From NCBI GenBank assembly GCA_904502265.1, contig CAJGDT010000001.1, positions 1 through 34,551 on the forward strand: a stretch of DNA of 34,551 bases, given 5' to 3'. Source of the stretch: an uncultured Barnesiella sp. (GTDB lineage Bacteria; Bacteroidota; Bacteroidia; Bacteroidales; Barnesiellaceae_A). The position numbers and the translations under genes are program-made. The notes under the pieces are model-generated. The model did not search any database and had not been told where the DNA came from. It worked only from the letters and a program-made list of their open reading frames with translations. This document shows, piece by piece, positions 97-25,623 of this stretch. Within the stretch, counting starts at the first letter, position 1, and every line of letters starts with the position of its first letter.

Positions 97-1107
97 CTAT
101 GGTGCTGATATAGTGCTTGAATGGGGTTGTTCATTTTTTGTTTTTTCTTTTAAATGGTCGAAGTTGCATTGGCTGACAATGAGTATGCCGAATGTTATTC
201 GGTTGATGTCGCTGATGTTTCTTGGATCGTTTGTGTCGATAAATGTGTGTATGCAGGGGTGCTTCTCGATGAGTTTTAGGAGTGAAATCTCTGTCTCTAA
301 CAGCTCGTCAATGTCGGGCAAGGGTGTGCGATGAGCGATGTTATCGGGGGTGTTGTGTAGGAGTATCAGTAGTCGTGGTACTTGTGATAGTAGGGGGATG
401 GATGCGACAATGTGTTCTTTGCCATCGGGTGATAGGGAGGTGTAATAGCTCTCGCTGACCGGTGCTTGTGGTAGGTAGTCGAGTGATGAGTCGATAGTGC
501 CGTTGTCGTTGATGCATATGATGGCGCAGTGAAAGGGTGTGTTGTGATGCGAGTGATTTCTGTGGGATGTGTCGGTGGAGTGGTGTAGAGTGCAGTGTGA
601 ATGGGGTAGCTTGAGTGAGTACAGCGAAGCACTCTTTTCGGCGCTGCCAATGCTTAATATGGGGTGTATTGAGGTGGGGTGAATGTGGGCTGTTTGGAAG
701 AATGGGTGTTCTTCCCATTTGCTGTGTTTTTGGATGCTGTGAGGTGCAAAATATTGTTCGTTTGTTTGGTAGAAATTTACCTCTTTCCAGATGGGATTAT
801 TGGCATGTTTTTGTTGCCAAAAGTCTAATAATTTTCGCCCCATTTTTCCTCCCGGAAGAGCTAAGGAAAATCTCTTTTTGGGTCTATAAAGTTTGCTCTC
901 GATAATGACTTCGGGGCTGTTTATGGAAGAGCCTATTACTTGCTCGCGTGTAATGAATCGGGTTGATGCTATGTGCTTGAATAGCTGTTGTGTAATTCCT
1001 TCAAGAGCCTCTTCCAGATTGTGGTGTTCGTGTCGTTGATGCATGATGAAAATGTGTGTGGTTTTATGACTTTTTTGTCCTATAGTATAAATACATTTGT
1101 GGGGCAT
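97..1107 (-). CDS. hypothetical His-rich protein; possibly a degenerate NagB/Pgl (sugar-phosphate isomerase/lactonase) fold, function unassigned
   Basis: 336-aa ORF. The segment SLALPGGKMGRKLLDFW...WKEVNFYQTNEQYF loosely resembles the ALSGGSTP...W..V.FF.DER pattern of 6-phosphogluconolactonase/GlcN6P deaminase, but with the catalytic-region residues changed. The coding strand is very A/C-rich and uses CTA/CGA/AGA/ATA codons, unlike neighbouring genes. Confidence 0.55.
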   Translation of the reverse strand: MPHKCIYTIGQKSHKTTHIFIMHQRHEHHNLEEALEGITQQLFKHIASTRFITREQVIGSSINSPEVIIESKLYRPKKRFSLALPGGKMGRKLLDFWQQKHANNPIWKEVNFYQTNEQYFAPHSIQKHSKWEEHPFFQTAHIHPTSIHPILSIGSAEKSASLYSLKLPHSHCTLHHSTDTSHRNHSHHNTPFHCAIICINDNGTIDSSLDYLPQAPVSESYYTSLSPDGKEHIVASIPLLSQVPRLLILLHNTPDNIAHRTPLPDIDELLETEISLLKLIEKHPCIHTFIDTNDPRNISDINRITFGILIVSQCNFDHLKEKTKNEQPHSSTISAP

Positions 1108-1126
1108 TTTGTTCCATCTATTTTGC

Positions 1127-1176
1127 GAAAAAACACCGACTTTATATGCCTTGATTTCTACATATAAAGCCGGTGC
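1127..1176 (-). terminator. intrinsic-terminator-like hairpin inside the 5' leader of the 97-1107 gene (candidate attenuator)
   Basis: caccgactttatatg (1134-1148) pairs with catataaagccggtg (1161-1175), 14 of 15 bp. On the minus strand the hairpin is followed by TTTTTT (rc of 1128-1133), about 20 nt before the ATG at 1107. Confidence 0.5.
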
Positions 1177-1302
1177 TTTTTTACAATCATATAACCTAAT
1201 ATTTCAACTGCGTAATGTTGCGGTTTGTGCGTTTCCGCATCACTGCGTGTGCCGTTACAAACCGGGATAATTGCGAGAATAATCTTGTCAATTATCACAT
1301 TG

Positions 1303-1310
1303 CAAAGATA
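1303..1310 (-). promoter_or_regulatory. Bacteroidota -7 promoter box TATCTTTG
   Basis: The plus-strand caaagata is the reverse complement of TAnnTTTG. It lies about 195 nt upstream of the ATG at 1107. Confidence 0.45.
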
Positions 1311-1521
1311 GGTGTGTTTGGACTATGTGTACAATAGCTTGATGTAGTGATTTTGATAAGAGTCCTTACCAATAAATGATTAGTGAGGGTGAAAATACGG
1401 CAATTTACACTTGAGCCTTTTGCTTGTTTTTGTAATGTGTTGATATTTATGGAGATTGCGTGCCTGATAAATTGTTGAAAAATTCTTCTATTATTATTGT
1501 GTAAAAGCTAATAAAAATTAC

Positions 1522-1529
1522 TATTTTTG
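1522..1529 (+). promoter_or_regulatory. Bacteroidota -7 promoter box TATTTTTG upstream of purH
   Basis: Matches TAnnTTTG and ends 27 nt before the purH ATG. Confidence 0.5.
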
Positions 1530-1555
1530 CCGACACATAACGAAAAAATTAAGCA

Positions 1556-3079
1556 ATGACAACAGAGAAAAAAATAAAGACCGCGTTAGTGTCGGTTTTT
1601 CATAAAGATGGTCTTGATGACATTATCAAAATGTTGCATGCCGATGGCGTGGAGTTCCTCTCTACCGGCGGTACACAATCGTTTATAGAATCATTGGGTA
1701 TTCCCTGCAATGCAGTGGAAGACCTTACCGGTTATCCCTCAATATTGGGTGGTCGCGTAAAAACCTTGCACCCCAAAGTATTTGGCGGTATCCTTAATCG
1801 TCGCGACAATGAGACGGATGCAGCTCAGATTGCCGAGTATGAGATTCCCTCAATCGACTTGGTAATTGTCGATTTGTATCCTTTTGAGCAAACTGTTGCT
1901 TCGGGCGCTGAAGAGGCTGCGATTATCGAAAAGATTGATATAGGTGGTATCTCGCTTATCCGTGCTGCTGCCAAGAACTTCAACGATGTGGCAATTGTTG
2001 CATCGAAAGGTCAATATGGTATCTTGCTTGATATACTCAAACGCAATGGTGCTAAGACTACACTTGAAGATCGTCGTTTGTTGGCTCGTGAGGCTTTTGC
2101 TGTTTCGTCGGGTTATGATAGCGCTATCTTCAATTATTTCGATGGTGGCGAAGGTTCTACCTTCCGCGCTGCTGTTAATGGTAACAAAGCCTTGCGCTAT
2201 GGCGAGAATCCTCACCAAAAGGGCGCTTTCTATGGCGACTTCGACGCCATGTTTGAGCAACTTCACGGTAAAGAGATTTCGTACAACAACTTGCTTGATA
2301 TCGATGCCGCTGTATCGTTGATAGCCGAGTTTGACGAAACAACATTTGCGGTACTCAAGCACAATAACGCTTGTGGTATTGCATCGCGCGATACAATCCT
2401 CGATGCGTGGACAGCAGCACTCGAGTGCGACCCTGTGTCGGCTTTTGGTGGCGTGCTTATTGCCAACCGTCCTATTGACTTGGCTACTGCCGAGGAGGTA
2501 AACAAGATTTTCTTTGAAGTAATTATCGCTCCCGAATATGCTCCTGAGGCATTGGAAGTGTTGAAACAAAAGAAAAATCGTATTATCCTTGTTCAAAAGC
2601 AACCCAATACCACAACCAAGCAATATCGTTCGTTGTTGGGTGGCGTGTTGGTACAAGATCGCGACTTGCACACTGAGCAACCCGAAGAGTTGCGTCAAGC
2701 AACCGAGCGCGCTGTTGATGCCGACCGTATTGCCGACTTGCTCTTTGCCAACAAGATTGTGAAGCATAGCAAATCGAACGCTATTGTGCTTGCCAAAAAT
2801 CGTCAACTCTGTGCCAGTGGTGTAGGTCAAACATCTCGCGTTGATGCATTGCGCCAAGCTATCGAGAAGGCTCATTCGTTCAACTTCGACCTCAATGGCG
2901 CAGTGATGGCTTCTGATGCATTCTTCCCCTTCCCCGACTGCGTAGAGATTGCGCACAAGGCCGGTGTTGATGCTGTGATACAGCCTGGTGGTTCAGTACG
3001 TGACCAAGAGACTATTGACTATTGCAATGCTAATAACATCGCGATGGTAATGACCGGTATTCGTCATTTTAAACATTGA
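1556..3079 (+). CDS. purH: bifunctional AICAR formyltransferase / IMP cyclohydrolase
   Basis: 507 aa. The N-terminal MGS-like domain (ALVSVFHKDGL...LSTGGT), the YGENPHQ motif and the C-terminal AICARFT region are all typical PurH. Confidence 0.97.
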   Translation: MTTEKKIKTALVSVFHKDGLDDIIKMLHADGVEFLSTGGTQSFIESLGIPCNAVEDLTGYPSILGGRVKTLHPKVFGGILNRRDNETDAAQIAEYEIPSIDLVIVDLYPFEQTVASGAEEAAIIEKIDIGGISLIRAAAKNFNDVAIVASKGQYGILLDILKRNGAKTTLEDRRLLAREAFAVSSGYDSAIFNYFDGGEGSTFRAAVNGNKALRYGENPHQKGAFYGDFDAMFEQLHGKEISYNNLLDIDAAVSLIAEFDETTFAVLKHNNACGIASRDTILDAWTAALECDPVSAFGGVLIANRPIDLATAEEVNKIFFEVIIAPEYAPEALEVLKQKKNRIILVQKQPNTTTKQYRSLLGGVLVQDRDLHTEQPEELRQATERAVDADRIADLLFANKIVKHSKSNAIVLAKNRQLCASGVGQTSRVDALRQAIEKAHSFNFDLNGAVMASDAFFPFPDCVEIAHKAGVDAVIQPGGSVRDQETIDYCNANNIAMVMTGIRHFKH

Positions 3080-3104
3080 AAACTAACTTTTAAAACAAAA
3101 CAGA

Positions 3105-4124
3105 ATGGGACTTTTCTCATTGACACAAGAAATAGCTGTCGACCTTGGAACTGCCAATACCATTATCATCCATGATGGTAAGATAGTGGTAGATGAGCCC
3201 TCGGTTGTGGCACTTGAGAAGAAGACTGAGAAACTCGTAGCAGTGGGTGAGAAGGCTCGCCAAATGCACGAAAAAACAGCACCTCATATTACAACTATCC
3301 GTCCTTTGCGTGATGGCGTTATTGCCGACTTCTATGCTGCCGAGCAAATGATACGCGGTATGGTGAAGATGGTAAATCCTCAACGTCGTTGGTTTACTCC
3401 CTCGTTGCGCATGGTTGTATGTATACCTTCGGGTAGTACCGAGGTAGAGATACGTGCGGTGCGTGACTCGGCCGAGCATGCCGGTGGTCGTGATGTGTAT
3501 ATGATATATGAGCCCATGGCAGCTGCTATCGGTATTGGTATAGACGTTACGGCTCCCGAGGGTAACATGATTGTGGATATAGGTGGTGGTAGCACCGAGA
3601 TTGCTGTAATCTCATTGGGTGGTATCGTTTCTAACAAGTCTATCCGTATAGCCGGTGACGACCTTACTGCCGATATTCAGGAGTATATGCGTCGTCAGCA
3701 TAATGTGCGTATTGGTGAACGTACTGCCGAGTTGATCAAGATTAATGTAGGTTCGGCACTTACCGAGTTGGCTGATCCCCCAGAAGATTATATTGTGCAT
3801 GGTCCTAACCAAATGACCGCATTGCCTATGGAGATACCCGTATCGTACCAAGAGGTGTCGCACTGTATTGAGAAATCTATCTCAAAAATTGAGGCTGCAG
3901 TGCTCAGCGCCTTGGAGCAAACTCCTCCTGAGTTGTATGCCGACTTGGTGCGTAATGGTATATATTTGGCAGGTGGTGGCGCATTGTTGCGCGGTCTTGA
4001 CAAACGTTTGACTGACAAGATTGGTATTACCTTCCATATTGCCGATGATCCTTTGCACGCTGTTGCAAAAGGTACCGGTGTGGCATTGAAAAATATCGAT
4101 GAATTTAACTTCTTGATTCGATAA
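3105..4124 (+). CDS. mreB: rod shape-determining protein MreB
   Basis: 339 aa with actin-fold motifs DLGTANT and DIGGGSTE, and the expected position ahead of mreC/mreD. Confidence 0.97.
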   Translation: MGLFSLTQEIAVDLGTANTIIIHDGKIVVDEPSVVALEKKTEKLVAVGEKARQMHEKTAPHITTIRPLRDGVIADFYAAEQMIRGMVKMVNPQRRWFTPSLRMVVCIPSGSTEVEIRAVRDSAEHAGGRDVYMIYEPMAAAIGIGIDVTAPEGNMIVDIGGGSTEIAVISLGGIVSNKSIRIAGDDLTADIQEYMRRQHNVRIGERTAELIKINVGSALTELADPPEDYIVHGPNQMTALPMEIPVSYQEVSHCIEKSISKIEAAVLSALEQTPPELYADLVRNGIYLAGGGALLRGLDKRLTDKIGITFHIADDPLHAVAKGTGVALKNIDEFNFLIR

Positions 4125-4145
4125 TAAGCAGAGCTAATATTACCC

Positions 4146-4182
4146 CGAGTTACACACTTCGCATGTGAAGTTGTGTAACTCG
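4146..4182 (+). other. stable intergenic hairpin between mreB and mreC
   Basis: cgagttacaca / tgtgtaactcg gives 11 bp, plus an inner cttc/gaag 4 bp. No clear T-tract follows. Confidence 0.5.
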
Positions 4183-4210
4183 TTGCGGTAAAATAAAGAA
4201 CGACTACTCG

Positions 4211-5056
4211 ATGCGCAATCTTATAGACTTTCTTATCAAACATCACGCTTGGATATTTTTTATATTCTACGTAGTGTTGAGTTGTACATTGCTTTTTTCG
4301 TCAAATCCTTACCAGCGAAGCGTATTTTTCGGCTCGTCAAATAGAGTCGTATCGCAAGTGTACGAAATGACCGATGCGGTATCGGGCTACTTCGGGCTTC
4401 GTAAAGCCAATGAGGAGTTGTTGATGCAAAATGGTGAGTTGGCTATGGAAAACTTGCAGTTGCGCCGTCAATTGCAACGATACAGCTATGCGGCCGCTGC
4501 CGATTCGCTTGCACAAAGCGACCCCATGTTGCAACAGTATGACTTTGTTTTGGCTCGAGTTATCAATAATAGCGTGAGCCATCTGGAGAATTATATAACG
4601 CTCGATAAAGGTCGTGCCGATGGAGTGGAACCCGAAATGGCCGTGGTGGACCATCGTGGTATTGTGGGTATTGTCAATGTTGTTAATGAGCATAGTTCGG
4701 TAGCAATATCGGTGCTCAATACCAAATTGCATGTGAGTTGCAAGGTGAAAGGAACCGATTGTTTCGGATCGTTGGTGTGGGATGGTCGCAGTGCCGCCTA
4801 TGCTGTGCTTGAGGAGATGCCTCGCCACGTTGAGTTTGTACCAGGTGATACGATTGTTACAAGTGGTTTCTCGGCAGTATTTCCCGATGGCGTAATGGTG
4901 GGCACAATACATGACTATGCCAAGCAGAAGGATGACAATTTCTATGCTATGCAAGTCAAACTTTCAACTGACTTTACCCAGCTGGGTGTAGTACGTGTTA
5001 TTCGCAATCACACACAAGACCAACAGCAATTGTTGGAGAAGGAGGCTCGTAAATGA
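4211..5056 (+). CDS. mreC: rod shape-determining protein MreC
   Basis: 281 aa with an N-terminal TM, a coiled-coil (NEELLMQNGELAMENLQLRRQLQ) and a beta-rich C-terminal domain. It lies between mreB and mreD. Confidence 0.9.
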   Translation: MRNLIDFLIKHHAWIFFIFYVVLSCTLLFSSNPYQRSVFFGSSNRVVSQVYEMTDAVSGYFGLRKANEELLMQNGELAMENLQLRRQLQRYSYAAAADSLAQSDPMLQQYDFVLARVINNSVSHLENYITLDKGRADGVEPEMAVVDHRGIVGIVNVVNEHSSVAISVLNTKLHVSCKVKGTDCFGSLVWDGRSAAYAVLEEMPRHVEFVPGDTIVTSGFSAVFPDGVMVGTIHDYAKQKDDNFYAMQVKLSTDFTQLGVVRVIRNHTQDQQQLLEKEARK

Positions 5057-5571
5057 ATATTAATCTGTTGCGCGAAATAGGTATAGCGCTGATATTTGTA
5101 TTGTTGCAGGTATTGGTATTCAATCAGATACACCTCTTTGGTGTGGCTGTTCCTTTGGTGTTTATATATGTTATTTTTCGCATGCCGTTGTCTCTGTCTA
5201 CAGCGTGGTTGCTTACAGCCTCGTTTTTCTTGGGGTTGGTTGTAGACATTTTCAGTAATACGCCCGGCATGAATGCATTGGCTTGTACAATATTTGCCTT
5301 TTTGCGTCGACCTGGTTTATCGCTATACCTTCCCCATGGTAGCGATTACGTGGCCGAAGTACCATCGATACGAGGCTTTGGTATGTGGCTTTATGTGCGT
5401 TATTCGCTAACACTTTCATTGCTTTATTGTGTATTGTTGTTCTCAATAGAGTCGCTCTCGTTGTTCGACTTTCCCTATCTGCTCATGCGTATAGTGAGTA
5501 GCACACTGCTTACGTTTGTACTTATTCTTTGTATTGATAGCTTGAGTCAAGGTCGTGAGAAAAGATTATAA
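5053..5571 (+). CDS. mreD: rod shape-determining protein MreD
   Basis: 172-aa polytopic membrane protein. It has an ATGA overlap with the mreC stop and the conserved operon position. Confidence 0.85.
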   Translation: MNINLLREIGIALIFVLLQVLVFNQIHLFGVAVPLVFIYVIFRMPLSLSTAWLLTASFFLGLVVDIFSNTPGMNALACTIFAFLRRPGLSLYLPHGSDYVAEVPSIRGFGMWLYVRYSLTLSLLYCVLLFSIESLSLFDFPYLLMRIVSSTLLTFVLILCIDSLSQGREKRL

Positions 5572-7417
5572 TCTTGAAAAGAGAAAGTATGTTATTGCTA
5601 CAGCCGTTGTTGCGATTGTGGTAATCTATATTGTGCGCCTATTCTCGTTGCAAGTAGGTGATAATGACTATAAACGATTTGCCGATAGTAATGCATTTCA
5701 GCGAAAAGTGCTTTATCCGTCGCGTGGCTTTGTGTATGACCGCAATGGCGAGCTGTTGGTTTATAATCAGCCGGCCTATGATGTGATGATGATACCGCGC
5801 GAGATGCGTTCGCTCGATACGCTTGATTTTTGTAATACGTTGGGTATCGATCTTGAGCAGTTCAATCGTTATATTGCTGATATGAAGGATCGTCGCAAGA
5901 ATCCCGGCTACTCAACTTATACACCACAGGTTTTCATGACGCAACTTTCGGCTCGCGATTATGGTCGACTGCAGGAAAAGTTGTATCGTTACCCCGGTGT
6001 GTATATCCAAAACCGTGTGCTTCGTGAGTATAGTCGTCCTATTGCGGCCAATGTATTGGGTAACATTCGCGAGGTATCACCGTCGGATATAGAGCGCGAC
6101 GATTACTATCGTCGAGGTGACTACACTGGCGACCTGGGTGTGGAGAAGTCGTTTGAGGATGTATTGCGTGGAGTAAAAGGCGAGGAGATACTTTTGCGAG
6201 ATGCTCATGGACGCATCAAGGGTAAGTATGAAGATGGTAAATACGATGTTCAGCCTATATCGGGCCGTAATATAACGCTGTCGATAGATGCCGATTTGCA
6301 GGCTTATGGCGAGAAACTGATGCAAGGCAAGACGGGTGCGATTGTGGCTATAGAACCCTCGACAGGCGAGATATTGGCGCTTGTGTCGAGTCCTACCTAC
6401 GACCCCTCTATCCTGGTGGGTCGTGAACGTGGAAAAAATTATGCGCGCCTTACTCGTGATCCGGGCAATCCCCTTTACGACCGTGCTATTATGGCGGTTT
6501 ATCCTCCGGGTTCAACATTTAAGCCTACTCAGGGACTTATCTTCCTTGAGGAGGGTATAATCACGCCCAATACCAATTATCCCTGTACCGGTGGTTTTGT
6601 TGTAGGAGGTTTGCGAGTAGGTTGTCACGCGCATGCCGCACCCCTGCCGCTGATACCTTCGTTGGCCACATCGTGCAATGCATATTACTGTTACGGATTG
6701 CGCTCGATGCTCGATAACCGCAGCCTTTATGAGAGTACATCCGAGGCTTTCGAGATATGGAAGAACCACTTGGTGTCGATGGGCTATGGTTACAAATTGG
6801 GTATTGACCTTCCCGGTGAGAAGCGTGGTTTCTTGCCTAATAGTGCCTATTACGACAAGTTCTATGGTAAGAATCGATGGAAGGCTCTCACCATTATATC
6901 TATTGCGATAGGTCAGGGTGAGATATTGGCTACCCCATTGCAAATAGCCAACCTCGCTGCTACGGTGGCTAATCGGGGTTATTTCTACACGCCTCACGTT
7001 GTGAAGGCTATACAAGATAGTGTAATTGATACGACTTATACTGTACGTCGCTATCCTTCGATCGATGCCAATCATTATGATGCTATTGTAGAGGGTATGC
7101 GTATGGCTGTTACCGATGGAACCTGTCGCACGGCCAATCTTAAAGATATAGAGGTGTGTGGAAAGACCGGTACGGCGCAAAATCCCCATGGTCGCGACCA
7201 CTCGGCATTTATGGGATTTGCTCCGATGAATAATCCTCAAATAGCCATAGCCGTATATGTCGAAAATGCCGGATTTGGTGCAACCTATGGTGTTCCTATT
7301 GGTAGCTTGATGATGGAGTACTACCTCAAGGGTGAGATAACCGACCCGGCTCGCAAAGATCTTGAACAAAGAATGTTTAACTCGAAAGTTGTAGGTAATA
7401 GTGGCAAGAAACGTTGA
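5555..7417 (+). CDS. mrdA: penicillin-binding protein 2 (elongasome transpeptidase)
   Basis: 620 aa with an N-terminal TM and transpeptidase motifs STFK (PPGSTFKP) and KTGTA. The GTG start overlaps the mreD end. Confidence 0.93.
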   Translation: MRKDYNLEKRKYVIATAVVAIVVIYIVRLFSLQVGDNDYKRFADSNAFQRKVLYPSRGFVYDRNGELLVYNQPAYDVMMIPREMRSLDTLDFCNTLGIDLEQFNRYIADMKDRRKNPGYSTYTPQVFMTQLSARDYGRLQEKLYRYPGVYIQNRVLREYSRPIAANVLGNIREVSPSDIERDDYYRRGDYTGDLGVEKSFEDVLRGVKGEEILLRDAHGRIKGKYEDGKYDVQPISGRNITLSIDADLQAYGEKLMQGKTGAIVAIEPSTGEILALVSSPTYDPSILVGRERGKNYARLTRDPGNPLYDRAIMAVYPPGSTFKPTQGLIFLEEGIITPNTNYPCTGGFVVGGLRVGCHAHAAPLPLIPSLATSCNAYYCYGLRSMLDNRSLYESTSEAFEIWKNHLVSMGYGYKLGIDLPGEKRGFLPNSAYYDKFYGKNRWKALTIISIAIGQGEILATPLQIANLAATVANRGYFYTPHVVKAIQDSVIDTTYTVRRYPSIDANHYDAIVEGMRMAVTDGTCRTANLKDIEVCGKTGTAQNPHGRDHSAFMGFAPMNNPQIAIAVYVENAGFGATYGVPIGSLMMEYYLKGEITDPARKDLEQRMFNSKVVGNSGKKR

Positions 7418-18170: not shown

Positions 18171-18614
18171 TTACCCTTTTCGGAATCTTGATGCCATCAA
18201 AATGCCTGTTGTTGACAATATTGTTATTGCCATGATAATGAGATGGTATGCCCACGAAGGTGTTGATTTGCTCTCTATCTCATTGGGTGGATGTCGGTAT
18301 GGAATGGAATCGATGGTGTGTATTTCTTGCATTTGTATAGTTATGCTGTCTTGTCGAGGTTCGATGGTGAGAGTGTGGTGTAGAGTACCGTTTGAGATAG
18401 TGGCCATGCTGTGTGCTCCATTGCCTTGCAGCAGACTTGTGGTGTCGGAGGTGCGATTGCTGTGTGATTCGCCTTGGGTAACTATCTCTATTATAGTGTC
18501 TCTCAGGGTTATGTACTCTTTGTGACTCCTATCGGTGGGAATGTATATGGTCTTGGTACATGCTATTGTGCCGGCGAGGCCAAGGATTGTAACAATAGTG
18601 ATTAGTTGTTTCAT
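18171..18614 (-). CDS. lipoprotein with C-terminal transmembrane anchor (unimolecular-spanin-like topology)
   Basis: The start is trimmed to MKQLITIVTILGLAGTIAC (lipobox-like Cys), giving 147 aa. The middle is Thr/Ser/His/Ile-rich, with a C-terminal TM WAYHLIIMAITILSTTGILMA followed by SRFRKG. The ATG overlaps the endolysin TGA (ATGA). Confidence 0.6.
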   Translation of the reverse strand: MKQLITIVTILGLAGTIACTKTIYIPTDRSHKEYITLRDTIIEIVTQGESHSNRTSDTTSLLQGNGAHSMATISNGTLHHTLTIEPRQDSITIQMQEIHTIDSIPYRHPPNEIESKSTPSWAYHLIIMAITILSTTGILMASRFRKG

Positions 18615-19018
18615 GCGTGTATCACCTCCCCTCTGTTGTTGCCATTGCGGCAGTAGCTTACATGTATCCACGCCGGACCTTGGCTATTGCCGCGTTCCCA
18701 TATCAATTGATCGAAGGGCATATTGAGTAAAATGTCAAACAATTTTCGATTTACTTGTGGCGACTCGGTGCATATATCTGCAGCTTCTCCTGTAAGATGT
18801 TGACTATTAGGTACTCCGCCTACACATTTGTTTAGTGTTTTGCTGCGATATCCGCTATTCACGCGAATGGGTTTTCGCAATGTTTCGCGAGCCGGGTCGA
18901 GTATATGCACCGCAAGTGCTGTAAGGTTTTCTGTAACTTCGGGGGTCGGAGTGTTGTCTATATGTAGTTGTCGAGCCAGAGCACTGTCTGTAAGTTCGGC
19001 TATTGTAAAATATTTCAT
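18611..19018 (-). CDS. peptidase M15 family (D-Ala-D-Ala carboxypeptidase-like) phage-type endolysin
   Basis: The start is trimmed to MKYFTIAEL, giving 135 aa. The pattern SGYRS...NKCVGGVPNSQHLTGEAADI...WIHVSY matches the Peptidase_M15_3 zinc-site pattern (H...D...H). It has ATGA overlaps on both sides. Confidence 0.82.
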   Translation of the reverse strand: MKYFTIAELTDSALARQLHIDNTPTPEVTENLTALAVHILDPARETLRKPIRVNSGYRSKTLNKCVGGVPNSQHLTGEAADICTESPQVNRKLFDILLNMPFDQLIWERGNSQGPAWIHVSYCRNGNNRGEVIHA

Positions 19019-19248
19019 ACGCCACCTCCGTTCTTGTCGTCTGTTGTGTGTGTGCGTACTCGGTAGCTGTAGTCTACCCCGAATAAAGCTCCGGCAAAGG
19101 TTACAACTTCGCCAAAAGCAACCAATACACTCTGATGAATTTCGCCCTCGGGATGTGTCCAAAATCCCGAAAATATAAGTACTATACCTGCCAGGCACAT
19201 GACGCATGCTGTGGTGAGGTGGACTGCCAATTTATTTATATTTGTCAT
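19015..19248 (-). CDS. holin-like small membrane protein (2 TM, charged C-terminus)
   Basis: The start is trimmed to MTNINKLAVHL, giving 77 aa. It has two hydrophobic spans (LTTACVMCLAGIVLIFSGFW and SVLVAFGEVVTFAGALFGV), then RVRTHTTDDKNGGGV. It sits immediately upstream of, and is translationally coupled to, the endolysin. Confidence 0.6.
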   Translation of the reverse strand: MTNINKLAVHLTTACVMCLAGIVLIFSGFWTHPEGEIHQSVLVAFGEVVTFAGALFGVDYSYRVRTHTTDDKNGGGV

Positions 19249-19374
19249 ACTCTTATTTTTTACTGCAAAGATGCAATGCAATAAGAGCTGACGAGTGCGA
19301 TAGAGAGAATTTGGGAAATAATATTTTGTTGTAGAATTTTTATAAAAACACTTGCATATATATTTATATGTGTG

Positions 19375-19382
19375 TAAATTTG
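19375..19382 (+). promoter_or_regulatory. Bacteroidota -7 promoter box TAAATTTG upstream of the GrpE-like gene
   Basis: Matches TAnnTTTG and ends 32 nt before the ATG at 19414. Confidence 0.5.
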
Positions 19383-19413
19383 CCATAATAATAACCTTTT
19401 ATTTCTATTTACC

Positions 19414-20220
19414 ATGGGATTATTTGGAAACAATAATGAGAGCGAATTGAGAAGCTTTGAGCAAACTATAGAACGTTTGAAATCGGAGTATGCTTCTCTT
19501 GAGGAAGAAAATAGAGCAAAGGATATCGAGATAGAACGCTTGAAAAAAGTGATAGAAGGTATGGGTGCTCAAGAAGAAAAAGCTTTCCCGACACCTGAGG
19601 TACCTACAGAGGAAGCCCCTGTGAATGTGCCGAGTGTCGATTATACTCCGGCATTAGAGGCACTCAATGCTTCGCTTAACGAGCTCAAGGAGCAAGCCAT
19701 TGCACAAAAGGCCTTGATGGAGGAGCATAAAGTATTGCTCGGATATCGCGACCGACAAGATGACAACATGCGTGCCATGCACAAGGAGTTGGAGCAGTAT
19801 AAGAGTGACTTCTTTGTGAAGATAACTCAACCCTACTTGAAAGCACTGCTTGACTTGCATAGCCGCTTCAATAGCACTTATACACACTTTGATCAACTCG
19901 ACAATTCGGAATGTAACTGGGAGGAGTTGTATGGCAATCTTATGAAGGAGTTTAAGAGCGCCATTATGGCCTTGAGTGACCGTGCATACAACGACTTTGG
20001 TATAGAATACTACGAGCCCGAGATAGGAGAGGAGTTTAATCGCAAGTTGCATCAACAACTGCAAGGCGATTCGGTAGAAACAACCAATCCCGAACTAAAC
20101 ACCAAGATAGCCCAAGTGGTGTGTGGTGGTTTTATCAATATCGACACCGAGAAGGTAGTGCGTTATGCACGTGTGAAAGTGTATAAGTATACCGAGGCAA
20201 CCCCGACAACAGAATCTTAA
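19414..20220 (+). CDS. GrpE-like nucleotide exchange factor (divergent, accessory)
   Basis: 268 aa with an N-terminal coiled-coil (RSFEQTIERLKSEYASLEEENRAKDIEIERLKK) and a Pro/Glu linker. The C-terminal part aligns by eye to the GrpE four-helix bundle and beta domain (...FGIEYYEPEIGEEFNRKLHQQL...VVCGGFINIDTEKVVRYARVKVYK versus GrpE G..FDP..H.A...GY....V.R.A.V.V.K). Confidence 0.7.
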   Translation: MGLFGNNNESELRSFEQTIERLKSEYASLEEENRAKDIEIERLKKVIEGMGAQEEKAFPTPEVPTEEAPVNVPSVDYTPALEALNASLNELKEQAIAQKALMEEHKVLLGYRDRQDDNMRAMHKELEQYKSDFFVKITQPYLKALLDLHSRFNSTYTHFDQLDNSECNWEELYGNLMKEFKSAIMALSDRAYNDFGIEYYEPEIGEEFNRKLHQQLQGDSVETTNPELNTKIAQVVCGGFINIDTEKVVRYARVKVYKYTEATPTTES

Positions 20221-20248: not shown

Positions 20249-21841
20249 ATGGCAAACGATAAAAGTAGAGCCGTATATGGCATAGACTTGGGTACAACAT
20301 TTAGTTGTATTGCACAAGTAGACCGATATGATCAAGCAGTGGTACTTCGCAACTTCGAAGGCGATGCAACTACTCCTTCGGTAGTGTACATCGAGTCGGA
20401 GAGTAACATGATTGTGGGTAAAGAGGCTAAGAACCAATTGGCTGTGGAGCCCGAAAAGACTGTAGCGTTTATCAAACGCGAGATAGGTAATGATGAGGCT
20501 TTCGACAAGAGCAAGAATACAACACCTATGCACCTCGACCCTGTTGAGATCTCGGCGCTTATTCTTAAGAAACTTGTACAAGATGCCAATAACTTGGGCG
20601 AAAATCCCGAGCCTATCACCGACGTTGTTATTACTTGTCCCGCATACTTTGGTAACAAAGAGCGCTTGCAAACCAAACAAGCCGGTATCAGTGCCGGTCT
20701 CAATGTGTTGGCTATTATCAATGAGCCTACTGCAGCCGCTATCTCGTATGGATTGAAGGTCGACGAGCGTCGCACTATTCTTGTATATGACCTCGGTGGT
20801 GGTACATTCGACGTTACCATTATTGCCGTTAACGGTGGTGCTATCAAGGTTATTGCTACCGGTGGTGACCACCACTTGGGTGGTGTCGACTGGGATACCG
20901 AGTTGGCTAAATATGTGCTCAACACATTCAACTCTCAAAATGGCACTTCTTATGAGTTCGATTCACTCTCGCCCAATGCTCGTTATGAGTTGTTGCTCAA
21001 TGCCGAGAACTGGAAGAAGAACCTTACTGCCAAGCAAAAGGTTAAGATTAACTTCTCGTATGAAGGTAAATCGGTTAACTTTGAACTTCCTCGTGAGACA
21101 TTTAATGCCATTACCGAGGATCGCTTGAATGAGACTATCGATGCAACACGCAAGATTATCGAGCTTGCTGAGGAGAAGGGCTATAAGAAAATCGACGAGA
21201 TTATCCTTGTAGGTGGTAGTAGTAAGATGCCTCAAATCAAGGATCGCGTAGAGGCTGAGTTTGGCTTGCCTACTCACATTACCGACCCCGACGAGTGTGT
21301 GGCTAAGGGTGCTGCTATCTTTGCCATGAACGAGGCTTATGATGCTGCCTTGAAGAAATCGGAGGAAGAGGGTACTAAGGCTCCCGAACCTCTCATGACC
21401 AAGCGTACTCGCGTAGTTAATGTAACAAGTAAGACCTACGGCCTTGGTCTTATCGATAACCAAGTGGGTAACATGATTTTTGCCAACACAACATTGCCCG
21501 TATCGCGCACTCGTGTGTTTGAGACAGTACGCGACGGTCAAACCGGTGTAACATTGCCCATCTACGAGAGTGACTTTACCGATGAGGAGAAAGACCAAAC
21601 TGTTGAAGACCGCTTCTGTAACTTGGCTACCGAGGATATATCGGAATTGAAGTTGACAGGCAACCACCCCAAAGGAACCGAGATTAAGGTTACATTCAGC
21701 ATTAGCGAAGAGGGTATCCTCAGTGTTAACGCTACTCGCGAAAGCGATGTAATAGACTTCCAATTGAAGGTGGCAGGTGTGAAGAGTGAAGATGAGTTGA
21801 GAAAGTCTCAAAACTTCATTGCTAACGCCACTGTTGAATAA
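20249..21841 (+). CDS. Hsp70 family protein, lidless (HscC-like length), accessory paralog
   Basis: 530 aa with the full actin-like NBD (GIDLGTTFS, DLGGGTFDV, LVGGSSKMPQI) and an SBD-beta region. It ends without the alpha-helical lid or an EEVD-type tail. Confidence 0.92.
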   Translation: MANDKSRAVYGIDLGTTFSCIAQVDRYDQAVVLRNFEGDATTPSVVYIESESNMIVGKEAKNQLAVEPEKTVAFIKREIGNDEAFDKSKNTTPMHLDPVEISALILKKLVQDANNLGENPEPITDVVITCPAYFGNKERLQTKQAGISAGLNVLAIINEPTAAAISYGLKVDERRTILVYDLGGGTFDVTIIAVNGGAIKVIATGGDHHLGGVDWDTELAKYVLNTFNSQNGTSYEFDSLSPNARYELLLNAENWKKNLTAKQKVKINFSYEGKSVNFELPRETFNAITEDRLNETIDATRKIIELAEEKGYKKIDEIILVGGSSKMPQIKDRVEAEFGLPTHITDPDECVAKGAAIFAMNEAYDAALKKSEEEGTKAPEPLMTKRTRVVNVTSKTYGLGLIDNQVGNMIFANTTLPVSRTRVFETVRDGQTGVTLPIYESDFTDEEKDQTVEDRFCNLATEDISELKLTGNHPKGTEIKVTFSISEEGILSVNATRESDVIDFQLKVAGVKSEDELRKSQNFIANATVE

Positions 21842-21867
21842 GAAATATTATACCCTACCCATAGAGG

Positions 21868-21887
21868 TTGTGTCACATGTGACACAA
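21868..21887. promoter_or_regulatory. perfect 20-bp palindrome TTGTGTCACATGTGACACAA in the Hsp70 / 840-aa gene spacer
   Basis: Self-complementary over 21868-21887. It could be an operator or an intra-operon RNA hairpin. Confidence 0.5.
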
Positions 21888-21909
21888 GCTTGTGTTTGAA
21901 TATATATAG

Positions 21910-24432
21910 ATGGATAAGACACTTCTAAAGCAGAAAGTTGCCGAGTGGGAGAAGGCATGCAGTTTCTTTGCCACCCCCGACATTGTTAAGCAGCTCGATA
22001 AAGACGAGAACGAGGCAATTGTATTTCTGAGCAACTTCTGGCGTGACAAAGAGTTTGACAAGGAGGCATGCCAAAAGCGTATCGACCTACTCAAGCATTG
22101 CGATAAATTGCACTCGAACAATCGTGAGATTATCGAAAAGAGCAAGACTCTGCGAGGTATTGCTCAGACATTTTATACCAAGGATTTCGCATCGTTTGAC
22201 GAGTTTCGCAAAGAGTTGGGATGGACGCCGGGAACAAAGAAAGCTCCTATACCCGAGCCTAAGAAGGCGCCTGTGCCTACTCCCAAGCCCGACTCTACGC
22301 CGCAACATGACGAGGCTCTGATAGCTACTAATGTACAGAAGTGGTCGCGTTCATTGCAGTTCCTTAAGAGTGAGGAGATCACGCCACAGCTCGACACCGC
22401 CGAGATTACGGCTATTGAGGTGCTGAGCGATATGTGGCGACGTCCTTCATTTCAGCCTGATATGAAGGAGGAGGCTGCCGATATGGTAAAGGTGTTGATA
22501 AGCTCGCACAAGTTGCACTCGAACAATCGCGAGATTATTGAACATAGCAAGAACTTATGTGCGGTGGCGCGTAAGATGTATGATGATAAGAAGAACTTCG
22601 ATATCTACAAGAAAGCCCTTTCGGAGTATTATAAAAATAATAAACCTCCTCGTCGCGAGCAGCCTGTTCCTGAGAAGAAAAAGAAGCCGATACCTCAATC
22701 ACCTCGTAGAGATAGCGAGTTGATTATACGCGATGTGCTCTTTGCCGATACAACCTACAACAATGAGATTATCAAGGACTTTGGCAAGGTGCTCTTTACC
22801 AATACGCAGTATATAGTGCCTCGCCTGTCAGTGTCGAGCGAGTACTATGGTACTGAGACGATAGAGGTAATCTTGAAATATCCCAATGGCGAAACTTGTA
22901 GCTATGATACCGAAGTGACATTCAGCGGTAAGGGCGATTATACATTGTCGGGTTGGGGTAGCAAGAGTGGAACATCGTATGCATCATACGGTTTCGTTGA
23001 GTACACCTTCAAGTGCAAGGGTAAGAAGTTGTGGCAAGGTCATGTTACCATAGGTCGCGACGCTAACAGCCCACGCTTGCCTGAGATATCGACTGTTAAG
23101 TTTGGTGCAGTTGATTACGACGGTAACATCAAGGTGAACTTTGGCTCGCCCATTCCTACCGGTATACCCTACTTGAAGCCTCGCATTGTGGTGTCGAACA
23201 ACTTCCGTGGTGCGGTTACTATCAATATAACCTTTGAGTATAAGGATAAGGATGCCGATCGTACATCGAGCGAAATCAGTATCCAAGGCCCCGGCGAATA
23301 CGACTTGACGGGTTGGGGTCGTCGTGATTGTACCTATTGGAAAGAGAATGAGACTGTGAAGGTTACCTTTAGTTGTGAGGGTAAAGTGCTCTATACGACT
23401 AATGTGAAAATTGGTTCGGGCGGTGGCTGGAGTCCCAAGAAGACTTATAATACACCGCATCGACGCAGTAGCTCGGGCGACTCATTGTGGGCACGTTTTG
23501 ATGATAAGATTCGCTCTATAGGTGAGAGGCTGGAGGATAGTAATGAGATATTGACATCAATAATTTCTGTTATTCTCTTTTTGGGCTTGGCAGCCGGTGT
23601 AGTATTTGAATGGATCGATGAAGGATTTTGGGCTGCCCTTATTACAGGTGCAGTAGGCTTTGTAGTGTTATCGTTTGTTATCGCTATAATGAGCTTTATT
23701 ATGCCAATAATAGTCTTCGTGCTGCAATTGGTGTTTAGGAATGCTTGGACATTCCTTATCGCGCTTATTCTTCTCTTTGGCCCATCGATAGCTGCTCTTG
23801 TGGGTGGCGTGGCGAGTGCTATATTTGCCCGTGATGATAGTGACGAGCAGGTTATTGAGCAAGTAGTAGCAATGCCTACATCAACTTACTATTGCACAGC
23901 GCAATCGGGTGTGATAGTGCGTCAAAGTCCATCGAAAACGGCTACACAATTGGGTGGATTGCAGTATAACGAAGAGGTGGAAGTATATGAAATAGAAAAC
24001 GGATATGCCCGCATCGACTACTATGGTCAAGAGGCTTGGGTCAGCAGCCAATATATTACCATGAGTGAGGGCGAGGCTTTCTTGATTGAAAATGCTAAAC
24101 GTAAAGATGTGAAAATCCTTGCAAGTGGATTACAATATGAGGTAGTGAAGAAGGGAAAAGGCAAGAAACCCTATGCGCATAGTGATATAAAGTGTACCTA
24201 TACCTGCTCGTTGCCCGACGGAACGGTCTTGGATAGCGCTACCGAGCCTATGGAGTTTAACCTGGGTGGTGTGATAAAAGGCTTTGCCGAAGGTGTTATG
24301 CAGATGAAGGAAGGTGCTCGATACATCCTGTATGTGCCGGCCAATTTGGGCTATGGTAATAATGCCGTCGGCAATATACCACCTCACGCTACTGTCATAT
24401 ACGATGTGACGCTTGTAGAGATAGTAGACTGA
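21910..24432 (+). CDS. multidomain membrane protein: 2x J-like helical modules, 2x beta-rich repeats, TM bundle, SH3b, FKBP-type PPIase
   Basis: 840 aa with internal duplications (aa ~25-100 versus ~160-245; aa ~270-382 versus ~390-502). A hydrophobic block spans aa ~547-640. There is an SH3b-like segment (YYCTAQSGVIVRQSPS...GYARIDYYGQEAWVSSQYI) and a C-terminal Mip/FklB-type FKBP domain (LASGLQYEVVKKGKG...FNLGGVIKGFAEGVMQMKEGARYILYVPANLGYG...VIYDVTLVEI). Confidence 0.85.
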   Translation: MDKTLLKQKVAEWEKACSFFATPDIVKQLDKDENEAIVFLSNFWRDKEFDKEACQKRIDLLKHCDKLHSNNREIIEKSKTLRGIAQTFYTKDFASFDEFRKELGWTPGTKKAPIPEPKKAPVPTPKPDSTPQHDEALIATNVQKWSRSLQFLKSEEITPQLDTAEITAIEVLSDMWRRPSFQPDMKEEAADMVKVLISSHKLHSNNREIIEHSKNLCAVARKMYDDKKNFDIYKKALSEYYKNNKPPRREQPVPEKKKKPIPQSPRRDSELIIRDVLFADTTYNNEIIKDFGKVLFTNTQYIVPRLSVSSEYYGTETIEVILKYPNGETCSYDTEVTFSGKGDYTLSGWGSKSGTSYASYGFVEYTFKCKGKKLWQGHVTIGRDANSPRLPEISTVKFGAVDYDGNIKVNFGSPIPTGIPYLKPRIVVSNNFRGAVTINITFEYKDKDADRTSSEISIQGPGEYDLTGWGRRDCTYWKENETVKVTFSCEGKVLYTTNVKIGSGGGWSPKKTYNTPHRRSSSGDSLWARFDDKIRSIGERLEDSNEILTSIISVILFLGLAAGVVFEWIDEGFWAALITGAVGFVVLSFVIAIMSFIMPIIVFVLQLVFRNAWTFLIALILLFGPSIAALVGGVASAIFARDDSDEQVIEQVVAMPTSTYYCTAQSGVIVRQSPSKTATQLGGLQYNEEVEVYEIENGYARIDYYGQEAWVSSQYITMSEGEAFLIENAKRKDVKILASGLQYEVVKKGKGKKPYAHSDIKCTYTCSLPDGTVLDSATEPMEFNLGGVIKGFAEGVMQMKEGARYILYVPANLGYGNNAVGNIPPHATVIYDVTLVEIVD

Positions 24433-24516: not shown

Positions 24517-25623
24517 TTAGTGATTCAACTCAACCTTTTGGGTAGCGGGTTGGGTCTCGTTGCGGTGGTTCACGGCATTAATGACCTCAGTAGCAAGCAT
24601 GCGGAAGGCTAAACCTGATGCGGTGTCGTCGAGTGCTACGGGATGACCGGCATCACCACCATCGCAGATGCTTTGTACCAAGGGTATCTGACCGAGCAGT
24701 GCTACGCCCATCTCTTCGGCAAGGCGCTTACCTCCTTCTCGGCCAAAGATATAGTAGCGATTCTCGGGCAACTCGGCAGGTGTAAACCAACTCATGTTCT
24801 CGACCAAGCCGAGGATGGGTACATTCACCTTATCGCCCATAAACATGCTAATACCCTTGCGAGCATCGGCCAACGCTACTTCTTGCGGTGTTGTAACCAC
24901 GATAGCTCCGGTGATACCCAATGTCTGTACAAGGGTGAGGTGGATGTCGCTTGTGCCGGGAGGAAGGTCAAGTACGAAGAAGTCCAGTTCGTCCCATGCA
25001 GCATCAGTGATGAGTTGTTTCAGTGCGTTGCTGGCCATACCGCCGCGCCACAATACGGCATCTTCTTTGTTTACAAAAAATCCGATAGAAAGCACTTTAA
25101 CACCGTACTTTTCGATGGGTACAATGTAGCTGTGACCGTTGCGCTCTTCGGCATATACTTTTTCGTCTTCGATATCAAACATCTTGGGAGCTGAAGGACC
25201 GAAGATGTCGGCGTCGAGCAAACCTACCTTATAGCCCGACATGGCAAGTGCCACAGCGAGGTTTGAAGCTACAGTAGATTTTCCTACGCCACCTTTGCCC
25301 GACGATACGGCGATGATATTCTTGACACCGGGTAGGGGATTTTCGCGAGTGGGACGTGCTGCTACACGGAATTTTACACCAATGTTGCCTTGTATCTCTA
25401 CATCGGGGGCAACAAATGTGAGGATGGCAGCCTCGGCGGCTTTTACAACTGAACGGATGAAGGGGTCATTCTCTTTGTCGAAAATGAGTGTAAAACTCAC
25501 CTTGCGACCGTCGATGCGAATGTCGTCCTCAATCATGTCGTTCTCGACAAGGCTCTTGCCATTGCCGGGATAACGCACCTGCGATAGTGCGTCGGTAATG
25601 AGTGTGGGGTATAGAGTATCCAT
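24517..25623 (-). CDS. mrp: Mrp/NBP35/ApbC family Fe-S cluster carrier ATPase
   Basis: 368 aa with an N-terminal DUF59-like domain, the deviant Walker A SGKGGVGKST, and a C-terminal CxxC-type region. Confidence 0.92.
   Translation of the reverse strand: MDTLYPTLITDALSQVRYPGNGKSLVENDMIEDDIRIDGRKVSFTLIFDKENDPFIRSVVKAAEAAILTFVAPDVEIQGNIGVKFRVAARPTRENPLPGVKNIIAVSSGKGGVGKSTVASNLAVALAMSGYKVGLLDADIFGPSAPKMFDIEDEKVYAEERNGHSYIVPIEKYGVKVLSIGFFVNKEDAVLWRGGMASNALKQLITDAAWDELDFFVLDLPPGTSDIHLTLVQTLGITGAIVVTTPQEVALADARKGISMFMGDKVNVPILGLVENMSWFTPAELPENRYYIFGREGGKRLAEEMGVALLGQIPLVQSICDGGDAGHPVALDDTASGLAFRMLATEVINAVNHRNETQPATQKVELNH

Follow-up and report, generated by a model that had tools for sequence, protein, structure and literature searches.

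Several arrangements are known in which an Hsp70 chaperone works with partners encoded beside it or held with it at a membrane, of which Escherichia coli HscC with DjlB and DjlC is the closest to the system discussed here, followed by the canonical grpE–dnaK–dnaJ operon and, by analogy, the mitochondrial import motor. The system in question is encoded in a stretch of 34,551 nucleotides from an uncultured Barnesiella sp. (contig CAJGDT010000001.1, the whole of which is referred to below as the window), where three + strand genes lie close together, for a GrpE-like protein, an Hsp70 and a protein of 840 amino acids (aa), in that order. The 840-aa protein begins with two copies of a helical module, and the unannotated domain family to which these belong is the hallmark of the third member of an uncharacterised chaperone system of gut Bacteroidales, the Hsp70 of which has neither a lid nor the arginine found at position 167 of DnaK. 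A preliminary description of the locus had taken the two modules for degenerate J-domains in which an altered His-Pro-Asp (HPD) loop was compensated by the loss of R167, a view that is not supported by the analysis given here. A literature search found no description of a cassette made up of a GrpE-like protein, a lidless Hsp70 and a module protein.

What the cassette shares with HscC, DjlB and DjlC is a specialised Hsp70 encoded beside a partner that has a membrane anchor and an N-terminal domain that interacts, or in our case would interact, with the Hsp70. Sel1-repeat proteins occur in both contexts, and the two Hsp70s share deletions of DnaK residues 76–101 and of the D211 loop (PMC8215388). 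The differences concern both partners: DjlB and DjlC have recognisable J-domains with HPE (79–94% hhalign probability against a J-domain profile), whereas the modules reach 1.8%, and HscC keeps R167, D393 and a shortened lid and works without GrpE, whereas the Hsp70 described here lacks R167, D393 and the lid and has its own GrpE-like gene.

The canonical grpE–dnaK–dnaJ operon has the same order of exchange factor, Hsp70 and third partner, and its Hsp70 has the same conserved ATPase residues, but the third gene of our cassette encodes no J-domain, G/F region or DnaJ C-terminal domains, and the Hsp70 is lidless with its J-contact residues replaced. In the mitochondrial import motor, mtHsp70 is held at the inner membrane by Tim44, with Pam18 (a J-protein), Pam16 (J-like, without HPD) and Mge1 (the GrpE of the system). 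A membrane-held Hsp70 with a GrpE-type factor and paired, related helical modules, HPD being missing from one, recalls this motor as an analogy only; Pam16, however, has the J fold, to which the module model has no match, and no translocon is encoded here. DjlA is likewise anchored in the membrane and shows an Hsp70-interacting domain to the cytoplasm, but its J-domain is C-terminal and canonical (97.9% by hhalign), it uses the housekeeping DnaK, and its orientation and domain order are reversed. The Hsp70–GrpE systems compiled by Kaur et al. (2020) differ in being linked to GAP1-N2 GTPases, in their occurrence in actinobacteria and firmicutes, and in containing real DnaJ fusions.

The N-terminal module and its gene linkage

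The product of the third gene (21910–24432, + strand) begins with two helical repeats that are clearly homologous, as the preliminary description had recognised, although each is ~110 aa long rather than ~75 aa. Module 1 occupies aa 1–111 (21910–22242; family hidden Markov model (HMM) E 5e-58), so that the earlier start coordinate of 21982 clips its first 24 residues, and module 2, its paralogue, occupies aa 133–245 (22306–22644; family HMM E 3.7e-51). Aligned with each other over 136 columns, the two N-terminal halves are 38% identical, with a BLASTP E of 1e-25, a value that, at the sequence level, puts duplication of the module far beyond chance. Between them lies a Pro/Lys-rich linker (aa 112–132; 22243–22305), seen in the translation, and the confidence of the structural model drops past residue 103.

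A word-indexed search with aa 1–250 returned three fragmentary matches only, and an exhaustive profile search was then used, in which a module profile built from five copies was scored against 1.84 billion representative proteins. At E≤1e-3 the resulting family comprises 131 clusters (50% identity), of which 76 remain at E≤1e-10. The module lies nearly always at the extreme N-terminus, as a single copy in 103 proteins and a double one in 29, and its best-conserved positions across 136 full-length modules are W13, L29, E33, A36, L40, W44, F49, H68, K79, Y89, F96 and F99. A proline follows ~10 residues past the module in 92 of 130 members, while the linker sequences are conserved in composition only. 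Single-sequence searches of the module region gave nothing in Pfam, NCBIfam, PADLOC or the sequences of the PDB, and the RefSeq name of one member, ‘TonB family protein’, reflects its C-terminus alone.

An AlphaFold model of the module, built with 110 family sequences, is confident (pLDDT 87.6, pTM 0.73) and predicts six helices at residues 3–20, 23–26, 31–46, 51–68, 72–89 and 93–103. H68 is the final residue of helix 4 in this model, S69-N70-N71 form a tight three-residue turn, and N71 takes the N-cap position of helix 5. In Foldseek searches the model had no significant neighbour: the best E was 0.8 among 350,542 PDB chains and 1.1 in BFVD. Since the same search with a beta-sandwich repeat from further along the 840-aa protein gave 28 matches at E≤1e-3, the empty result is a property of the module and not of the method. 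Two candidate relatives were considered and rejected. The first, the helper subdomain of the collagenase ColG, had an overall E of 2e-4 in a profile search of PDB sequences, but its per-domain values were 0.44 and 16 and only module positions 8–55 were covered, as expected of a chance match; the second, that the module is an Hsp70 lid acting in trans, has as its sole trace a Foldseek match to the human Hsp70 C-terminal domain (E 5.2, TM 0.30). As modelled, the module is a six-helix domain of ~110 residues that matches no known family.

The gene for the module protein travels with that for the Hsp70. Exact-sequence lookup of four diverse family members placed each of them directly downstream of an Hsp70 of 525–532 aa, itself preceded by a GrpE-like gene, on metagenome contigs whose flanking genes are unrelated, and the order GrpE-like protein, lidless Hsp70 and module protein was found in most of the metagenome contigs checked. 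A wider scan covered one genome for each of 185,579 species. Neither module alignment had a stretch conserved enough for this purpose, and DNA encoding the Hsp70-specific pattern [VI]VNVTSKTYG was used instead, so that the count of linked genes is independent of the module. It yielded 52 loci, of which seven end too early to judge; among the 45 that can be assessed, an HMM-detected module gene lies immediately downstream of the Hsp70 gene in 40, and a further three (L011, L038 and L051) have a related but divergent N-terminus in that place. A GrpE-like gene precedes the Hsp70 gene wherever upstream sequence exists. Pairwise distances of Hsp70s and modules are correlated (r 0.88, Mantel p 0.001), the modules diverging about twice as fast (mean 60% versus 30%). 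The proposal in the preliminary description of a private Hsp70 pairing, set apart from DnaK and DnaJ, is thus a reasonable reading of a conserved and co-inherited gene pair, whereas the J-domain basis offered for it is not supported.

Nearly all of the loci come from gut or rumen Bacteroidales, including Prevotella, Alistipes, Bacteroidaceae, Muribaculaceae, Barnesiella, Phocaeicola and Bacteroides hominis. Cultured carriers are among them, namely Bacteroides hominis CLA-AA-H207, Prevotella sp. 885 and Phocaeicola plebeius. Single loci occur in Fibrobacter (L047), Flexilinea (L015), Bulleidia (L018) and a metagenome-assembled genome labelled as archaeal (Methanomethylophilaceae, L051), which could reflect horizontal transfer within gut communities or binning error; the modules of the Fibrobacter and Methanomethylophilaceae loci are divergent. 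At two loci (L043, 3–3246, and L032, 6121–7999) two lidless Hsp70 genes stand in tandem.

A lidless Hsp70 with a rebuilt J surface

The second gene of the cassette (20249–21841, + strand) encodes an Hsp70 of 530 aa that consists of a nucleotide-binding domain (NBD), a linker and the beta part of the substrate-binding domain (SBDβ), with a Pfam HSP70 match at E 5.7e-104. This match covers profile positions 1–501 of 599, and the protein ends near DnaK residue 525, there being no helical lid (SBDα); identity is 34% to DnaK and 32% to HscC. Both of the substitutions picked out in the preliminary description are confirmed, namely the reading YFGN for DnaK YFND (20645–20656; N147 to G and D148 to N) and the alanine at the R167 equivalent, Ala155 (codon GCT, 20711–20713), inside the sequence AGLNVLAIINEPTAAA, which begins at aa 149. 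For the wider comparison 48 subfamily Hsp70s were aligned to E. coli DnaK; independently of that sequence, an HMMER alignment to the solved DnaK structure 4rtf places Ala155 opposite the Arg of AGLNVLRIVNEP.

Residues of the catalytic and allosteric core (D8, T11, T12, K70, R151, E171, D194 and D201) are kept in 48/48, and by this and by its Pfam match the protein has an NBD and SBDβ of DnaK type. The surroundings are different. Position 167 is Ala in 33, Gly in nine, Ser in four and Asp in two, and never Arg; N147 is Gly in every member and D148 is Thr, Asn or Gln; E206 and D208 are mostly Asn or Val and Asn, respectively; and DnaK residues 209–212, which include D211, are deleted in 48/48. 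E217 is Lys or Arg in 45 members, D326 is Ile in 42, Q378 is Tyr or Phe, the linker residue D393 is Asn throughout, K414 is Ala in 46 and D481 is Glu in 46.

The meaning of these changes can be read from the contacts described for the canonical pair, in which H33, P34 and D35 of DnaJ touch, respectively, the backbone of L391, P419, and R167 with Q378 of DnaK, and in which D211 is a further J-contact residue (Mayer 2021, PMC8215388). Neither a DnaK-type lid nor the J-contact residues R167, D211, Q378 and D393 are present in our Hsp70, and on this alignment the whole canonical J surface is rebuilt, consistently across 48/48 members of the subfamily. R167 has a second role, as the pairs R167–D481 and D326–K414 clamp the NBD to SBDβ in the ATP state (PMC8215388), and the D326/K414 clamp is here replaced on both sides, by Ile and Ala. 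In a lidless Hsp70, then, the absence of R167 may have as much to do with altered docking between the domains as with a new partner. With the J surface and part of the contacts between the NBD and SBDβ rebuilt, it seems unlikely that housekeeping J-proteins drive this Hsp70. HscC, for its part, keeps AVRLINEP and VILTD and is a protein of 556 aa with a lid, and it is in our subfamily that a GrpE-like neighbour is conserved; on these features the Hsp70 is a subfamily separate from HscC.

The GrpE-like nucleotide exchange factor encoded by the first gene (19414–20220, + strand) has 268 aa with an N-terminal coiled coil and matches Pfam GrpE over aa 82–258 (E 6.5e-10), its score of 39.4 bits for PF01025 lying above the cut-off of 25.8. 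It reaches no NCBIfam GrpE equivalog threshold and is, by these profile scores, a divergent member of the family. The window Hsp70 is also without some six residues at DnaK positions 291–296. Residues 290–295 of DnaK form a GrpE-signature motif that is absent in HscA and HscC (PMC8215388), and since this signature is lost while a GrpE-like neighbour is retained, the interface of Hsp70 and GrpE may also be private.

Possible roles of the module

The module is the sole feature common to all of the downstream proteins and travels with the Hsp70, and for these reasons we think it probable, rather than firmly established, that it is an Hsp70-facing element with a non-J fold, serving as a membrane-tethered docking or regulatory handle, or both, for a private Hsp70–GrpE pair. 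The tandem cytoplasmic modules would be the unchanging part, an N-terminal handle, in a family of inner-membrane proteins whose C-termini vary, and would dock and/or regulate the dedicated lidless Hsp70, whose catalytic residues for ATP hydrolysis are retained, at the inner face of the membrane. In this way they would take the place of the J-protein of grpE–dnaK–dnaJ, both in the operon and in function, without being J-domains by descent or fold. They might act as a functional counterpart of a J-domain by triggering ATP hydrolysis, perhaps by way of the His turn, or might do no more than tether the Hsp70. A bolder form of the proposal, which we put forward tentatively and hold to be possible but doubtful, is that of a J-domain-independent Hsp70 machine of gut Bacteroidales, in which a new helical fold took over recruitment and ATPase control of a lidless Hsp70 with a rebuilt J surface and couples cytoplasmic ATP turnover, through the membrane partner, to periplasmic SH3b, TonB_C, FKBP or thioredoxin domains.

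Several observations weigh against the module as an Hsp70-facing element. Binding of the module to the Hsp70 is suggested by gene linkage, and this linkage, together with the correlated distances, is also expected if the module protein is a client. Two loci have the lidless Hsp70 but no module protein, L041 (cassette at 498–6437), where a small heat-shock protein (Hsp20-type) and ClpB follow it, and L052, where a secreted protein does. Two module proteins of the HP[AT]D type, P0027 (L002) and P0080 (L060), have no adjoining Hsp70 gene on their short contigs, and this subgroup possibly works with an Hsp70 encoded elsewhere, perhaps DnaK. The conserved His is absent from the most divergent relatives, L047 and L051, for which reason the His loop may be structural in role, and in the model the N-cap position of residue 71 could alone explain the conservation of Asn or Asp there.

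The main rival explanation, which we nevertheless consider unlikely, takes the module protein for a dedicated client or regulated substrate, in which the substrate-binding domain of the Hsp70 would bind either the modules themselves or the basic, Pro-rich linkers between domains, and the cytoplasmic part would be held, unfolded or pulled on in the course of the ATP cycle. Gene linkage and co-inheritance fit this as well as they fit the module as a docking handle, and the twofold faster evolution of the modules, the basic Pro/Lys-rich linker that follows each of them, and a lidless substrate-binding domain, which would bind and release fast, are all in its favour. A folded, conserved domain with invariant surface-type residues (E33, H68 and K79) is, however, atypical of an extended Hsp70 substrate, and the linkers are conserved in composition alone.

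It is improbable, in our view, that the modules are extremely degenerate J-domains, or convergent J-like hairpins, whose H-x-x-N/D turn enters the groove between the NBD and linker and triggers ATP hydrolysis. The idea has its attractions: the modules occupy the J-protein position in the operon, and their near-invariant His stands at the end of one helix, with a short polar turn leading from it into another long helix. The turn is exemplified in the window by KLHSNNREIIE, which is found, just where the preliminary description placed it, in identical form in both modules, at aa 66–76 (22105–22137), where it spans the end of helix 4, the three-residue turn and the start of helix 5, and at aa 201–211 (22510–22542). 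Across the 136 modules the family consensus at this block is [KN]-[LKY]-H-[SGPA]-x-[ND]-[RKL]-[DE]-[IL]. The His is kept in 129, which bears out the first part of the expectation that an H-S-N loop would be conserved; the residue equated earlier with Asp35, the third when the His is counted as the first, is in contrast variable (Asn in 70, or 51%, Ala in 20, Ser in 19, Gly in ten and Asp in three). The residue directly after the His is Ser in 44, Gly in 35, Pro in 24 and Ala in 16, and the fourth, by the same count, is Asn in 92 and Asp in 19, so that in place of an invariant His-Pro-Asp there is a loop that varies past its His. A minority of modules read HPAD, HPTD, HPSSD or HPD at the turn, the literal HPD occurring in only two cluster representatives, P0078 and P0100, and these members are the best remaining argument for a J-like function; the HPD member P0078 (L059) and the HPSSD member P0114 (L061/L062) do adjoin an Hsp70 gene.

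Profile comparisons argue against J-domains. Pfam DnaJ (PF00226) matches neither the 840-aa protein nor either module at E≤10, and none of 110 family modules at E≤1, and no DnaJ domain was found among 83 family members scanned with Pfam at full length. For hhalign, a J-domain profile was made from 11 J-domain sequences, all of which were confirmed as PF00226, and the profile of 110 module sequences aligned to it with a probability of only 1.8%, the best local alignment pairing module helix 5 with J helix II, a register other than the one proposed in the preliminary description. Six divergent true J-domains, run as single-sequence controls, reached 79–98%: HscB, auxilin, SV40 T antigen and DjlA, all outside the J profile, scored 94–98%, and the HPE proteins DjlB and DjlC of E. 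coli 94 and 79%, respectively. Such profiles can miss J-like domains, as yeast Pam16 scored 0.4%, and because this control went undetected sequence methods alone are insufficient against an extreme J-like relic. In the structural comparison no J-domain appears within the top 50 Foldseek matches of the module model in the PDB, which tends to speak against a J-like domain of the Pam16/Tim16 type as well, and where a J-domain has four helices the module has six, with ~50 helical residues ahead of the putative helix II and a turn of three residues in place of the longer J-domain loop.

The proposed compensation between an Asp-to-Asn change in the loop and the Arg-to-Ala change in the Hsp70 fares no better. 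There is no covariation of the loop with position 167, and indeed nothing for it to covary with, because none of the subfamily Hsp70s has Arg there, and the Hsp70 upstream of the HPSSD module still has Ala. The Hsp70 moreover lacks the partners of an HPD motif, R167 being absent, Q378 replaced by Tyr or Phe, and D211 deleted.

The near-identity of the DNA encoding the two copies of KLHSNNREIIE, to which the preliminary description also drew attention, is real in the window, where 22105–22147 and 22510–22552 are 88% identical over 43 nt and the same codon is used at 10 of 13 shared residues, against ~5.7 expected from window codon usage (P ~0.014). It is not a general property, because the count of same codons among 21 orthologues spans 3/8 to 12/13, and it mostly reflects amino-acid constraint and codon bias, with occasional local gene conversion possible. 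Gene conversion between the motif copies is thus not general, but it is possible in the window genome with its 10/13.

Finally, that the modules have nothing to do with the Hsp70 beyond a common operon, and serve, for example, to oligomerise or scaffold the membrane protein, is highly improbable: P0027 and P0080 without an adjacent Hsp70, and L041 and L052 without a module protein, fit this idea, but the pair is adjacent in 40–43 of 45 loci across Prevotella, Alistipes, Bacteroidaceae, Muribaculaceae, Fibrobacter and others while the flanks change, and the module alone is constant in a downstream protein whose C-termini vary.

Downstream domains, neighbouring genes and significance

Beyond its modules the 840-aa protein has two beta-sandwich repeats of ~120 aa each, all beta in the AlphaFold model (aa 268–391 and 389–512; 22711–23445; mutual E 2e-20; pLDDT 94.8), a hydrophobic membrane block of probably three to four helices (aa 544–640; 23539–23829; Kyte–Doolittle scan), a bacterial SH3 domain (aa 666–716; 23905–24057; Pfam SH3_3 E 8.8e-13) and an FKBP-type peptidyl-prolyl isomerase (PPIase) made up of an FKBP_N tail and FKBP_C (aa 719–836; 24064–24417; Pfam FKBP_C E 1.3e-19, FKBP_N E 2.1e-6), which also matches NCBIfam FKBP-type PPIase models at E 1e-26. 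The beta repeat recurs in ~43 related proteins, has only a sub-threshold Pfam match (DUF7850) and weakly resembles the lipid-binding sandwiches UNC119, PDE6-delta and RhoGDI (Foldseek E ~2e-4, TM ~0.5). These repeats were also considered as DnaJ C-terminal domains and rejected as such, being Ig-like sandwiches with no such domain in the top 50 Foldseek matches.

Of the 87 family proteins that reach 350 aa or more, 76 have a hydrophobic block after the modules, and the C-terminal Pfam domains of 83 members include SH3_3 in 32, MORN in 19, TonB_C in six, Sel1 in four and FKBP in three, with CD225, thioredoxin/AhpC and others in a few members each. TonB_C, FKBP with FKBP_N, TlpA-like thioredoxins and SH3b are typically extracytoplasmic. 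The proteins begin directly with the module, which suggests that they have no signal peptide, and this, the membrane block and the nature of the C-terminal domains make it likely that the N-terminus is cytoplasmic and the C-terminus outside. The beta repeat, however, stands on either side of the membrane block in different members, which leaves the topology unsettled.

The 68-nt gap between the Hsp70 gene and the gene for the 840-aa protein holds a terminator-like hairpin (21866–21895, + strand). It is conserved in ten orthologous loci (L025, L012, L035, L019, L001, L014, L016, L036, L006 and L004) as a stem of 11–12 bp (GAGGTTGTGTC / GACACAACCTC) that closes a variable loop and leads into a T-run, usually CATTTTT, and shows compensatory changes at three pairs; the window copy is slightly degraded, with one mismatch and a weaker T-run. 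Its sequence and position suggest that it may be an attenuator holding the amount of the membrane partner below that of the Hsp70.

Over 7.7 kb, DNA identity of the window to a sheep-rectum contig (‘Bacteroidaceae bacterium RGIG6227’, L025) is ~82%, and the two have in common a flanking gene for an Mrp/ParA-type ATPase (24517–25623). PADLOC gave no meaningful match to a known defence system and there was no DNA match to phages, and both a known defence system and a phage origin were rejected on these results. Upstream of the GrpE-like gene and divergent from it, on the - strand, a Peptidase_M15_3 gene (within ORF 18611–19207) lies between two small ORFs, one of which (19015–19386) has weak matches to membrane-domain Pfam families while the other (18171–18671) stands on the far side of the peptidase gene; the trio (18171–19386) resembles a small lysis-type or cell-wall cassette. 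It was rejected as part of the system, since its conservation extends to no more than five close relatives (L001, L014, L025, L033 and L049) and so represents lineage-local synteny.

The prevailing view is that no Hsp70 works without a J-domain protein as its partner. Bacterial derivatives of DnaK have been called largely unexplored in recent reviews (PMC13580251). The cassette offers a clean test case, as a compact unit of three genes found in dozens of gut and rumen species of Bacteroidales, in which the Hsp70 is without a lid and without the canonical J contacts and the slot of the J-protein is taken by a protein starting with a domain that databases do not recognise. This domain merits a family definition of its own, its members being named at present only after their C-termini. 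Were the module protein only a client, an Hsp70 and a GrpE dedicated to a single family of membrane proteins would still be unusual; if the module does control the Hsp70, it would represent a second, independent solution to Hsp70 regulation, in which a cytoplasmic chaperone is tied to envelope-facing domains.

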